NCBI GenBank assembly: GCA_905178155.1
Contig: CAJINV010000002.1
Span: 10,334,146 to 10,398,145, forward strand
Source of the DNA: Amoebophrya sp. A120
Taxonomy: Eukaryota; Protista; Dinoflagellata
Reading direction: 5' to 3'
Length of the DNA: 64,000 nt
The notes beneath the pieces are model-generated. The model searched no databases. It was not told the DNA's origin and saw only the letters and a program-made list of their open reading frames with translations. Shown here in pieces: positions 5,384 through 60,741 of this stretch; positions within the stretch are counted from its first letter, which is position 1, and each line of letters opens with the position of its first letter. The position numbers and the translations under genes were made by a program.

Positions 5384-8300
5384 TCAGCTTCCGCTCGACT
5401 CCGGCGTCCCGAGCATCTTCTCTATAAGCGCGTCCGCGACCCGCATGGGTATGCAAGATTCCGTCGTGACGTCGCAGGCGCTGGTGTAGAACCCCCGGCG
5501 ACAAGTCGCGCTCTTCGGGTCGGTGCAGTCCCTCCAGGAAAAGCTTTTCGCCCGCTCTGCCTCGGTAGCTGTGGCGGGTATCTGCACGTTGCGCTCCAAC
5601 TCTGCTTGGGCGTCGAGCAGATCCATTGTCAAGTGAGTCACGAAGTTCTTAAGCGTAAAGTAGTTCGCGTCCATAGCCAGAAACGAGCACTCCAACGGGG
5701 TGACACCCCCCGAATCCACGTGTGGGAAGTACGTGCCTCGCCCCGTGAGCTCGAGGGAGTTATACTTGTTGGGGCCGTTGCTCGATAGCAATTGCATGCT
5801 GCCCTCGCCAAACCCCCCACCGTGACACGCTTCCGCCAAGGTCAGCCACAGCTCCCCAAATTCGAGAGTGTCCACTTGCCGGCCGATCATGCCGGTCCAC
5901 GCGAGCTCGCTTCGCGCCCTGCTTTCCAGGGCGAAGCTGCCGAACATCTTCGCGGGAATCTGGAGCGTTGCGACATCTTCGCCAAAATCTCCGCCGTTGA
6001 ACAAAAAATCGTACACTGCCTTGTCGGCCACCGTACCCCGCTCCTCGACAGCGGAGGCCAGCGCTTGTTCGCGCAGGGTCTCCGGCGGATAGACCGTGGG
6101 CGTACCGCGGAAAAACGCCGCGTACTTCACATCGTCCACATTCTGGATCTTCGCCTGCTCCGTTGCAAAGTCGCGCTCCACATCCGCGGAGAACTCCGCG
6201 TTCAGGAGGCTCTTCACCGTTTCCGACCGCTCGCGCACCCAGTGCCGGCTGTTGGTGGGGCTGATGAAGGTCATGAGCACTTCGCGCCCCGCGGGGATCT
6301 GCAGGTACTTGTTCTCGATCGTGCGCAGCTTGACGGTCGCCACCGCCCCATACCCAGTCGCCACCGCGGACTCCAGCGCCTCCGCCACACCGAGAAAGGC
6401 CTCGGGCGCAAACACCTGGCGCCGGGCAACAGCCGCGTCCTGTGCGGCGTTCTCCGCGTCCCTGAGCTCGCGCACCTTCTCGTCACTCAGCGTTTTCTCA
6501 CCGCAGCAGGACGCGGGCTCGGTTTGCACCACGTCCGGCCGCGTCCGCAGCCCGAATAGCTGCAGCGTCGCCGCGTCGAGACCGCAAGCGTGCCAGCAGG
6601 GCACGTCCATGTGAAAGGCCTGCTTCAATGGTTCGTACCGCCCGAACAGCCAGTCTTGCTCCATGCTCGTCAAGTGCAGCAGGTGGTCCCGTTTTAGCAA
6701 CACGTCTCCACCTTCTTCACTCGAGCTGGATACATTCTCCATCAGCCTTCGTAGGAGAAGGAACCGCGAGTACCGGATGTCCCCCTTCGTGTTCATGGTG
6801 ACCACCACCCTTTGCACGCCTCGACGCAGCAGCGGGTAGACCCCCAGTGCGTCGGCCACGTCGCCGTCACTCAGCAACAGATCCACCTTGCGCATGCTCT
6901 CGTTTTCCAGGAAGAACGCGTGTTCGAACCCGAAGGCTTCGCTGATCCCCGCCCGCAGAAGGTTGCTCGAGGCGGTGACCGCGTCGGACAGGGCCCGGGG
7001 CGAGTGCAGCCGGTCGATCGCGTACAGCTCCTCCGCCGCCGGAGGCAGGCCGGCGCGCTCCGCTTCCGCGGTGCGGGATGATTGGTACTTGTTGGCTGCT
7101 TCGTAGAACGGGGTGGTTTCGAACAGGAAGGCAGTCTGCTCCGTCGGGCCGCTCTCGGGCTTCAACGTCTGACCCTTCTCGGTGGCGGTCTGCACCACGA
7201 TGGGAAAGGGAAGCCCCTTGCGGCGCAACATCGGCCGGTGCGTGAGCGGGTCCCGGTACTGGACGAACTCAAAGGGCAAGCTTTTCCACCGCGCCGGGCT
7301 CTGCTCGGCGCCGCAGAAGATCCGCTCCTGAATCCACCGGTGCTGGTCCACGAGCTTCGCCATGTCGCACCCGCTGCACATGCAATCCGCCATGCCGTTC
7401 CCGCACAAAGCCTCGTCGCCGATGTACTGCGCGAATCCTACCGTGAGAAAGCTCGGGCAACTCCGCTGCTTGTGCTTGTCCTGCAGCCCCTTCAGCGTCA
7501 ACCCGCCGAACGAGTTCGCGTCGCCGCTGTTCGTCCAATCTTTGCCGATGAAGTACTCCGGGTAGCTCTGGTCGCCGAACCCGGGAAAGTAGTGCGTTAT
7601 CAAATGTAAAAATGTCTGGGTCTGGAAGATTGCCAGGTTTGTCATGCACATTTTGCATGACTCCTGATGTCTGTGATGCATGCCCTAGCATCACAGATTT
7701 TGTGAGGGCTTCCTGATGCCTATACCGCATGACAAATGCTCTTTCCGTGTAGCAAAACTTGGACACTCTTTGCTGCTCATCGTTCGTTCGTTGTGGATCG
7801 GCTCTGCCGACCGGGTAACCCAACGCCTTGCATATAAGTGACCGACTTAGGCGAACCCCGTTGCGGGACATACAAATTGGCCGTACGGAAGGGCCCTAAG
7901 CGCTACATACATAGTTCACCCTAAGCGCCTACCACTTCGGTCTGGGACCTCGTCTACCTGATCCTGGGGGTCCACAGCGCACTAGCCCTTTGCTAGCATA
8001 AACAGTTTGGGTTCTACAAAGTGATCTAACTCTCTCCTTTGAACAGTAAGGCCATCATAAATGTGCGCTAAAACGGGTTCGGGGCGCTCCGTACGGAAGG
8101 GGGCCCTTCGACGCGGCGTACACTCTCCTGTAGAGATTTACGCGGAACACGGAATAGATTTTTTTAGAATCCAAAATCAGCATGACAAGTTGGATTCTTC
8201 CAGACCCAGACATTTTTACAGTTGATATGCGTCTCGCCCGTGCGATTGTTGGCGTCCAGCTTTTCCTATCCTGTGCAAAAGTATCGCACTCGTACTAATT

Positions 8301-8996
8301 GCAATCATGCATGACAGATCTTGTTTCTTAGCGAAATCAGCATTACAAATTCCATTTTTTCTTCTGGAAAAATTTGTATTGCGATTTATACTAGTACGAT
8401 ACTTTTGCAATGCATATTTCCGCGCTTTCCGGACCCGGGACAAACAGGCCGGTGGCGAAGCCCCACGTGCCCCCGGACACGCCGGTCACGTACTCCGGCA
8501 GTCGCAGTTCCTCGTCGTGGTACACCTTGAGAACCGCTCCCACCAGCCCCGCGGCGCGGCTGCCACCCCCGCTGAAGGCGAACCCAGACACGTACGCGGG
8601 GCAGGCAAAGTCCGTGCTGTCCGGGTCGCTCGCCGGCGCCAACAGGGCCTGGAACTCCGGGAATCCGCACCACGTTCCGCGTTCCGTCAACCCGTAATTG
8701 TCCTTCTGCTTTTTAATAGCGGTCTTTGCCACAAACGATGCCACTTCTTCGCCTTTCTTGGTACTTCGTGTGCCACCGCTCAGGTTTCTGAGCTGGTTGT
8801 TTCTTTGCCCATCTTGCATCTTGAGGTCCTGGAGATGCGGCCTGTGCTGAGGAAAGCGCAGACTGCGCTTCTTGTTTGTCTCACCCCCCACATACGCCGC
8901 GACGGAGTAGTCTTCCAGCGGTAGCTGCCCGATTAAAAAAAAGATCAAACGGCGGCGCGAGATCATGTTTATGATGTGCGGAGGGGGATTTCGCAA
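5384..8996 (-). CDS. cPLA2/patatin-like (lyso)phospholipase; interrupted by introners at 8267-8416 and 7598-8227; 5' end uncertain
   Basis: Oxyanion motif FSGGGSRA, nucleophile elbow GVSGG and a candidate catalytic Asp in LSDGD. Excising the elements joins ..PESAE|KLDANNRTGETH|YFPGF.. in frame. Confidence 0.75.
7598..8227. mobile_element. Family-A introner with ~370-bp nested insert; TSD TGCGT
   Basis: TIR tatcaaatgtaaaaatgtctgggtctggaag / cttccagacccagacatttttacagttgata. TGCGT at 7593-7597 and 8228-8232. Confidence 0.95.
7781..8150 (-). mobile_element. Nested insert with (AACG)n tail, possible retroposon 3' end
   Basis: Absent from sister introners (630-370=260 vs typical 262 bp). Begins cgttcgttcgtt on +. 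Internal repeat ccgtacggaaggg(gg)ccc occurs twice. Confidence 0.5.
8267..8416. mobile_element. Family-G introner, 150 bp; TSD TTTCC
   Basis: TIR tatcctgtgcaaaagtatcgcactcgta / tactagtacgatacttttgcaatgcata. Removal restores the lipase frame. Confidence 0.9.
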
Positions 8997-59700: not shown

Positions 59701-60741
59701 ATACAATGTAGTTCAAGCTTCTAAAAAGACAATACAAAAACCCTCTTCCTCTTCTCCCGTTCTGGCACGGGGGAGCGAAGCATGGGTAGATATTCCGTTA
59801 ACTTACCTGCGTCTTCCCGTCCGGGCGTATCCAGGGGCACGTGCCGTCCTTGCGCACCTTGGTGAGCTGCCACCCCAGACGGGTGGACATCGAGTGCGTG
59901 AACGGCATCAGCTCCGGCGTCTCGTCGCTCGCGTACCCGAACATGTGTCCTTGGTCCCCGGCCCCAATGTCCTCGACCGCCTTCGTGCCCATTCCGTGGA
60001 CCCCCTGCCCAATGTCCGGACTCTGCTCCTCCAGCTTGTTTAACACGTCCATGGACGCATAATCGAGACCTGCGCAGCGTTTCCATCATCAATGCTGCTT
60101 TTTTTACCATAAACAAACAGACCCGCCAAACGTTTTTGTCTAAAACTTTTGTCCCTCTGGATAAATACTTATCATGCGACGAGTGAGAAAAAAAAAAGAC
60201 CTTTGTCCGCTGAATCGTAGCCGATGTTTCGGCAGGTCTCGCGCACCACTGCTTCGTAGTCCACGTTTGCTTTTGTAGTGATTTCGCCAAACACCATCAC
60301 CATGCCAGTTTTCGTGCTAGTCTCGCAGGTATGAAATGCAAAAGTGTCTGGGTCTGGAAGAATGCGCGATTTGTCATGCTGCTTTTCCATGACCCATGAG
60401 GTCTGAAATGCAGGACCTAGCATGACAGATTCTGTGCGATCTCTCTCATGCCTATCCTGCATGAGAAACTCCCTCCCGACTTGGTCAAAACTGGACGACT
60501 TTTGGTAATCATGCAATACAGATTTTTGCATGCTTTAGATGTAGCATGACAAGTTGCAATTTTCCAGACCCAGACATTTTTACATTTGATAGCAGGCGAC
60601 CCGCGCGTCCGGGTCCTGGGACAAGCATGCGTCCAGCACAGCATCGGAAACTTGGTCGCAGATTTTGTCGGGGTGTCCCTCGTTCACGCTTTCGGACGTG
60701 AACAAAAAGCATCCGGGCTTGGGCGGGCGAATGGACGTCAT
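56792..60741 (-). CDS. MAT-ADK: S-adenosylmethionine synthetase (MAT) - adenosine kinase fusion protein
   Basis: [44 protein letters not shown]. Continues without stop or intron via [18 protein letters not shown] into [47 protein letters not shown]. Confidence 0.93.
57851..58129. mobile_element. Family-B introner, 279 bp; TSD ACGCA
   Basis: Near-perfect TIR tatcctgagtaaatacgtacccacaccagagt. Joins YMGCV|GKDGY. Confidence 0.95.
59221..59468. mobile_element. Family-G-like introner, 248 bp, with degenerate TSD (CGGCT vs GTGCG)
   Basis: TIR tatcccgggcaaaagtgtcgtat / atacgatacttctgcagggcata. Removing element+5 nt gives GSMVPHRVHT, matching the MAT VPxRVHT motif. Confidence 0.85.
60330..60591. mobile_element. 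Family-A introner, 262 bp; TSD GCAGG
   Basis: Splits the conserved MAT motif RVAC|ET. No GT or AG is available in any junction register. Confidence 0.96.

Follow-up and report, generated by a model that had tools for sequence, protein, structure and literature searches.

What removes a transposon from the message once it has landed in an exon, and how are the ends of the removed piece found? The question is raised by a stretch of 64,000 nucleotides (nt) of Amoebophrya sp. A120, a marine parasite of algae (contig CAJINV010000002.1, positions 10,334,146 to 10,398,145; the window in what follows), in which 24 short elements with terminal inverted repeats (TIRs) reading TAT...ATA lie in minus-strand genes, 22 of them in coding sequence. 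An initial annotation of this DNA had taken them for transposon-like introns that are excised together with 5 nt and without GT-AG borders. The evidence assembled here agrees that exactly the element plus 5 nt is removed from transcripts, fixes the cut at one copy, and bears on whether a modified spliceosome or a separate machinery makes it.

A scan of the window for TAT...ATA inverted repeats recovered the same 24 elements in eight TIR families that the annotation had described, between 7598 and 60591. They measure 150–323 nt, the exceptions being two copies with inner inserts, 7598–8227 (630 nt) and 46875–47376 (502 nt). The flanking 5-nt target-site duplication (TSD) is perfect in 22 of the 24, matches at four of five positions in 22651–22902 and at two of five in 59221–59468; the 23 recognizable TSDs claimed earlier are thus 22 perfect ones and one of 4/5. 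Flanks of different elements agreed by chance in one of 552 pairs. The TIR criterion recovers 23 elements, missing 15497–15803, which is without the A-run, and it returned no pair in any of 50 order-2 Markov simulations. Ten copies fall in TIR group A, five in B, two each in C, D and E, and one each in F, G and H. A TAT-N7-A-run is common to 23 of 24 elements (15497–15803 still has the TAT/ATA), and an internal motif, GCA(A/T)NACA, also to 23; given these shared features, the eight groups look like subfamilies of one kind. Element pairs reach 92–95% identity, and the TIRs, the constant length of the TSD and the lack of coding capacity are those of miniature inverted-repeat transposable elements (MITEs), i.e., non-autonomous TIR DNA transposons. 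For comparison, 148 loci of a related assembly were fetched by the TIR pattern, their elements being a median of 81% identical to the window copies. A cognate transposase-coding partner was found neither in the window nor in these loci, a search of viral_contigs with the TIR pattern gave no match, and no Rfam family (group II intron or other ribozymes) matched within the window at the gathering score.

The introner system to which these elements belong is already known, having been published in 2021 with RNA-seq support. In the parts of Farhat et al. (PMC7789003) drawn on here, and the same restriction applies to every paper cited below, 65% of A120 introns are reported as non-canonical, and A120 introners are described as having a TIR of TAT, 7 nt and at least three A, with direct repeats of 3–5 nt. 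The window elements agree with these in TIR start, in 5-nt repeats, in a length of about 250 nt, in RNA support and in sharing their genes with GT-AG introns. All four features that define membership are present: the TIR form, the direct repeats, the non-GT-AG removal and the repeated copies in an A120-type genome. Moreover, two exons of the window are 100% identical to database proteins, P0002 and P0121, both named Amoebophrya sp. A120, and a third exon matches P0123. From the matching features and the exon identity it follows that the window elements are the A120 introners themselves, which confirms the identity that the annotation had suggested.

Removal of these elements can be followed in contigs X1–X4 of one study, which were treated as RNA for their skipping of GT-AG introns and the stretches that they leave uncovered; their RNA status is a guess, none of the runs listed being on record as RNA. 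They skip 11 GT-AG introns alongside the elements, and their poly(T) ends before 44707 and 55626 show that the genes lie on the minus strand. Numbering the elements along the window, loss of the element plus 5 nt is seen in these contigs for 11 of 24: six by direct joints (elements 5, 16, 17, 20, 21 and 22), four through exact sums over pairs and one indirectly. Between 7592 and 8417, X1 record 1 keeps 34 nt (39 − 5) from between elements 1 and 2, whose removal thus takes a net 10 nt beyond the two elements; between 11739 and 12431, X1 and X4 keep 50 nt from between elements 3 and 4, as removal of 5 nt with each predicts. The length sum over elements 18 and 19 admits many solutions. Among net removals from −4 to +14, the database proteins fit only +5, at all 13 elements that they cover. 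Taken together, contigs and proteins support 19 of the 24 elements, with elements 13, 14, 15, 18 and 19 being compatible, and none of the RNA joints listed departs from +5. Deleting each element with 5 nt reopens a long minus-strand frame in all 22 coding cases and rebuilds the four motifs quoted in the annotation. Two direct joints, at elements 20 and 21 (56075 and 56400), lie in the 3' untranslated region (UTR) of a gene for methionine adenosyltransferase fused to a PfkB kinase (MAT-PfkB), so removal is independent of coding. It is also seen in opposite orientations, in element 16 against 20 and in element 21 against 17 and 22.

The related loci give the same picture on a broader scale. A perfect 5-mer TSD flanks 206 of their 253 called elements, some of the calls being mispairings (e.g., L020), and a 4/5 match flanks 27; other lengths are rare. 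Enough flank was present at 215 of the 253, and at the 62 junctions that passed the threshold for confident coding the +5 frame is kept in 57. Longer duplications occur at L056:3329-3608 (8 nt) and L131:75-329 (7 nt).

Might the shortened transcripts be an artefact of the library? A hairpin with direct repeats is a recognized setting, in the literature drawn on here, for template switching by reverse transcriptase, the evidence consists of cDNA contigs, and a raw-read run (X8) matched repeats rather than unique exons, so that one could hold that the real mRNAs keep the elements. However, 16 of the 22 coding cases would suffer a frameshift if the element were kept, and five of the other six would have stops in all three frames, including the methionine adenosyltransferase and M16 peptidase genes, while long contigs cross several elements without branching and element 23, discussed below, is removed with no repeat at its junction. 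We therefore consider such an artefact very improbable. A comparably slim chance attaches to excision at the DNA level at some life stage, as with the internal eliminated sequences of ciliates. TIRs and TSDs would suit a transposase, and the DNA side of the comparison is a single DNA-like run of flat depth (X5), taken on its listed joints. Nonetheless, at 12 element ends X5 passes from unique flank into the element with the depth of the flank, and it bridges both ends of element 5 (54 and 57 nt inside, at least 31 nt on both sides), which the RNA skips; none of the 15 X5 joints listed removes an element. The 4+1 division of the TSD with exact restoration of the target, to which we now turn, would moreover be an unusual excision footprint.

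A perfect TSD hides the position of the cut, and a decayed one makes the register visible. In both X1 and X4, the RNA piece next to element 23 stops at 59216, one base beyond where it ends at perfect copies. The adjoining bin, 59264–59927, has a depth of 18.1 against 71.5 in X1, which corresponds to 168 covered bases (167 and 169 would give 17.98 and 18.2; the arithmetic was checked on the neighbouring bin) and so places the next exon base at 59470. On the transcript the intron is accordingly C, the element and AGCC, and no repeat is left at the junction. P0002 reads VPQR at this point, and among six registers only the one that cuts 1 nt before and 4 nt after the element (1+4) yields VPQR; of the five closest relatives for which the motif is listed, four have PQR and one PTR. 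All three TSD mismatches fall in intronic bases under 1+4. At element 11, the 1+4 register predicted KSG rather than KNG beforehand, and P0121 reads KSG. For element 23, then, the cut is fixed 1 nt before and 4 nt after the hairpin, and the same register is likely for all copies. At the two longer duplications in the loci such a cut would leave 3 and 2 extra bases. A second decayed TSD was sought through a cyclin-like exon of L023, which had no match at E 1e-10 among proteins of at least 259 amino acids (aa).

A contrary possibility is that the element plus 5 nt is always lost but that the repeat itself guides the cut, which can slide along the duplicated target, the 1+4 position being peculiar to one old copy. 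The legends of Figs 3 and S23 in PMC7789003 do call the splice sites variable, at 1–5 nt from the repeats; 22 of the 24 window copies cannot be pinned; and a GC-decay test on at most 21 decayed TSDs in the loci ranked 1+4 first without reaching significance (16:10, p 0.16). Against a sliding cut, element 23 is removed at +5 without any repeat at the junction to guide it, element 11 agrees with 1+4, and the published variability is what ambiguous alignment inside a 5-nt repeat should produce. This makes sliding an improbable account of the whole set. A fixed register was not found in the literature searched, although unexamined papers or the figures of PMC7789003 (Figs 3, S19–S25) may show one; the portions used of PMC12130899, PMC10666404 and PMC11453091 give no splice position for these introns.

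What letters, then, does the machinery encounter at these borders? In no equivalent register can any of the 24 elements be read as GT-AG or GC-AG, which upholds the absence of GT-AG borders claimed at the outset; GA-AG is possible for two and AT-AC for two. The transcript-strand TSDs have no constant position among the 24, again as stated in the annotation. The loci suggested a phase bias and, at TSD position 4, a bias towards purines; neither is seen in the window, and both were dropped. Nine of the 24 elements have an in-frame GT...AG alternative within about 12 nt; for eight of them there is RNA or protein evidence, and it shows +5 instead. No cryptic GT-AG site nearby, whose use would have told against the annotation, is used in the cases covered. 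In the 1+4 register all 24 introns begin with N-TAT (N being A in 5, C in 8, G in 7 and T in 4) and end with ATA-N4, and a GT..AG in this register, found in two of 29 oriented copies from other loci, arises by chance. The canonical donors shown by RNA in the window begin with GTA in 10 of 11 cases and with GTAT in 5 of 11, so that the start of the element resembles the local donor minus its G at +1. TA falls on +2/+3 in just one of the six registers. The U2-type donor feature of U+2 and A+3 would hold for 24 of 24 copies if 1+4 is general, and is pinned for one, while the GT/GC...AG ends of U2-type introns are absent from the elements. As a separate observation, a GT...AG intron-like stretch at about 8922–9049 (minus strand) is retained in X1 record 1, which is continuous over 8417–9110; it may be UTR or a retained intron.

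These patterns suggest a modified U2/U6 spliceosome that removes each element with one TSD copy and reads the TAT of the element as a donor minus its G, a reading to which we give roughly an even chance of being correct. Pairing of the TIRs would bring the intron ends together in place of recognition by U1 and U2AF, N-UAU would be read as the donor, and the 3' site would be counted off from the TIR rather than read as AG. At the 3' end the signal would be AUA-N4 preceded, at about −15 to −19, by a U-run, with A-7 as the candidate branch point; short distances from branch to acceptor occur in some protists and yeasts. As the same TIR stands at both ends, every insertion, in either orientation, would present the same signal. 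With four bases retained from the first TSD copy and one from the second, the original target would be rebuilt, whereby insertions would be silent at the protein level and the elements could spread through exons. In line with this reading, all nine predominant non-canonical pairs of A120 in Table S4 of PMC7789003 have T at +2, whereas in A25, whose TIR begins TTA, all nine pairs begin TT. The same paper reports U2, U4, U5 and U6 and 83 of 89 spliceosomal proteins in A120, U1 not having been found. A bolder form of the reading, which is rather less probable as a whole, would have a U1-free spliceosome without G+1 and terminal AG take the symmetric N-UAU...AUA-N4 as a complete splice code, with A25 having reached U+2/A+3 through its TTA end and the geometry of the stem converging on that of euglenid introns. 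AT5, for its part, has none but canonical introns.

Several points weigh against a modified spliceosome. Known spliceosomes need the interaction between +1 and −1 for exon ligation, and here +1, −2 and −1 are unconstrained. Conservation of the TAT in group A (120–124 of 130) is no higher than that of other fixed TIR positions (116–128 of 130), so the TAT may be kept for transposition only. The bases proposed as donor and branch point would lie buried in the predicted stem. In Table S4 every A120 pair is half-canonical, which may reflect tie-breaking by the aligner. The register rests on one exact and one partial case, a single pinned junction: element 11 excludes registers 0–2 only (at least three upstream TSD bases are kept), and the decay test fell short of significance. 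The database proteins and RNA runs may not be independent, and the reading is built on contigs and sequence, with no lariat, circle or protein observed.

Some of these points would sit more easily with a separate, non-spliceosomal endonuclease that reads the TIR stem and cuts 1 nt on its 5' side and 4 nt on its 3' side, a ligase joining the exons and the intron leaving as a circle or a linear piece, a scheme that has been proposed for the nonconventional introns of euglenids. The +1, −2 and −1 positions are free, stable stems of 25–30 bp are predicted, and U1 was not found in A120 (PMC7789003). The +4/−7 pair is also that of the N6 variant in the Euglena code N3CDG...CH'GN5-6 (PMC12501133), and Euglena introns leave as circles without lariats (PMC11282704). 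On the other hand, the pinned register matches the organism's own donor except for G+1, and the Euglena signature, which ends with R as the first exon base, is not found here: the introns read N-TAT...ATA-N4, have no CAG/CTG, and are followed by a purine in 13 of 24. For the inner TIR stem the prediction reaches at least 0.8 in 23 of 24 elements, and the three terminal pairs are predicted in 20; elements 4 (12109) and 23 (59221), whose predicted terminal pairing is weak (0.43), are nevertheless cut exactly. We therefore regard a separate enzyme as possible but on the whole unlikely. The idea in the annotation that the TIR stem positions removal stands in part: the cut keeps a fixed distance from the TIR ends at one pinned junction, but the exact removal of elements 4 and 23 leaves stem structure and terminal TIR sequence unseparated. 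Likewise, of its two suggestions for the machinery, one modified from the U2 spliceosome is favoured over a distinct one, since in the pinned register the invariant TA comes to lie at +2/+3 of the donor.

If general, a fixed 1+4 register would define the splice sites at tens of thousands of junctions that are now ambiguous, and would predict where the excised RNA begins and ends as well as a candidate base for the branch. It would make the choice between a modified spliceosome and a new endonuclease with ligase testable, by lariat versus circle. Should the spliceosome indeed do without G+1, AG and U1, the view of what splicing chemistry requires would have to be broadened, and there would be an explanation of how transposons can colonize exons at no protein cost.

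The individual copies, all in minus-strand introns, may now be gone through in order. Element 1 (7598–8227; group A; inner insert of about 370 nt; TSD ACGCA) and element 2 (8267–8416; group E; GGAAA) are supported by their joint RNA sum. Element 3 (11745–12053; group C; CAGCA), in the gene for an insulinase-like M16 peptidase, and element 4 (12109–12430; group D; TGCTC) share another such sum, to which P0123 adds for the former and a database protein for the latter. Element 5 (14264–14548; group B; TCCGG) has a direct join, 14258/14549 in X4 record 8, and a database protein. For element 6 (15497–15803; group F, its TIR without an A-run; ATCCC) P0123 demands +5, with no RNA piece listed. Scan and database protein together support elements 7 (15840–16101; group A; ATTTG), 8 (16226–16434; group G; GAACG), 9 (16494–16816; group D; CGAAC) and 12 (22992–23239; group B; TGAGC), the protein being P0121 for element 10 (18553–18803; group A; TGTTG). 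P0121 also covers element 11 (22651–22902; group A), whose decayed TSD reads GAGCG upstream and GAACG downstream. Element 13 (35145–35449; group C; TCCCG) lies beyond the coverage of the RNA contigs and is judged by frame. Frame is joined at element 14 (42650–42905; group A; GGACA) by an RNA piece ending at 42643, as +5 leads one to expect, and at element 15 (43045–43202; group H; CATTC) by one starting at 43203, neither joint being among those listed.

Element 16 (46875–47376; group A; inner insert of about 240 nt; AGCAT), in an exportin-7-like gene, has a joint 46868/47376 that removes 507 nt, and element 17 (47442–47720; group B; ACCTA) a direct joint 47436/47721 that removes 284 nt, both in four of four runs. 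Element 18 (53226–53513; group A, with an internal TIR duplication; CAAGT; RNA piece end at 53220) and element 19 (53851–54102; group A; CCAAC) have a length sum that is compatible and not unique. The two 3' UTR copies, element 20 (56075–56336; group A; ACTTG; joint 56069/56337, 267 nt) and element 21 (56400–56678; group B; TTTTT; joint 56394/56679, 284 nt), are each joined directly in three of four runs. The same holds for element 22 (57851–58129; group B; TGCGT; joint 57845/58130, 284 nt), which sits in the half of the MAT-PfkB gene that encodes PfkB and has a database protein besides. Element 23 (59221–59468, within the intron 59217–59469; group E; intron ends CT..CC) is the pinned copy, resting on the RNA piece end, the depth and P0002, and P0002 also supports element 24 (60330–60591; group A; CCTGC), in the MAT half. 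A broken 25th copy of group A at about 380–660, its right border approximate, is truncated and duplicated at the right end and is probably intergenic.

The inserts nested in elements 1 (about 7781–8158) and 16 (46945–47165) are non-coding. That of element 16, flanked by T-runs, recurs at 85% identity in L042, and its host element is excised exactly all the same; L063:3791-4762 contains a comparable insert of about 700 nt with an A-run at its end. Two long TIR pairs were rejected, the one in L056 being a mispairing and the one in L063 a non-coding insert. A dispersed repeat of about 38 nt, which is not a TAT...ATA element, has three copies in the window (about 661–695, 1391–1428 and 2254–2291) and matches in L011, L016, L032 and L067. 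Diverged direct repeats of 62–73% identity (39113–39354 with 42357–42598, and 36656/39565/43224) are likewise not TIR elements and are probably tandem gene paralogues.

Among the host genes, the minus-strand frame at 56795–60741 joins methionine adenosyltransferase and PfkB kinase in 740 aa (P0002), and one RNA contig spans both halves. The PfkB half is presumably adenosine-kinase-like, to judge from its motifs, and the fusion would connect the synthesis of S-adenosylmethionine (SAM) with the recycling of adenosine. Since P0003, P0008, P0010 and P0012 are listed with the same two Pfam parts, A120 is not alone in having this fusion; nothing on it was found in the literature searched. Elsewhere, predicted minus-strand proteins contain poly-threonine tracts (23645–23753, 35989–36181 and 42180–42327), and a nearby frame at 26979–27800 matches Temptin_C; these products may be surface or secreted proteins.

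Set against the published description of A120 introners, the addition made here is the fixed 1+4 cut with a donor-like start. The parts of PMC7789003 drawn on call the position of the splice border variable or unknown, whereas here one junction fixes it at 1+4 and shows a donor-like N-TAT start, and removal is seen in both orientations and in UTRs. The TIRs of the window also extend over 25–30 nt, whereas that paper searched for 8–20 nt.

A parallel in geometry can be drawn with the nonconventional introns of euglenids (Nomura et al. 2025, PMC12501133; reviewed in PMC11282704), which likewise have a TIR stem, TSD-like repeats and no GT-AG. They too are cut at fixed distances from the stem and, in the N6 variant, share the +4/−7 pair. 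They differ in needing CDG/CH'G, spacers of N3 and N5-6 and a purine after the intron, whereas the stem in the window starts at +2 with TAT/ATA and the mixed first exon bases allow no purine rule. Circular products have been shown for them (PMC11282704), the window elements being known from contigs and sequence.

A precedent for the modified spliceosome favoured here is provided by the MITE-derived introns of Fritillaria borealis (PMC11282704, PMC13326754), which bear TIRs and TSDs and are removed by an altered U2 spliceosome; a term search of the available part of PMC13326754 gave no mention of Amoebophrya. The ends of the Fritillaria introns are mostly AG-AC or AG-AT, with U1 present and U2AF duplicated, whereas A120 has no constraint on +1 or on the final two bases, and its U1 was not found. 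Finally, the canonical introners of Micromonas, Aureococcus and Polarella (PMC12130899, PMC11282704) are, like the window elements, non-autonomous TIR elements that make introns and rebuild their target. They bring or co-opt GT/GC/GA-AG sites to this end, whereas the elements of the window use none.

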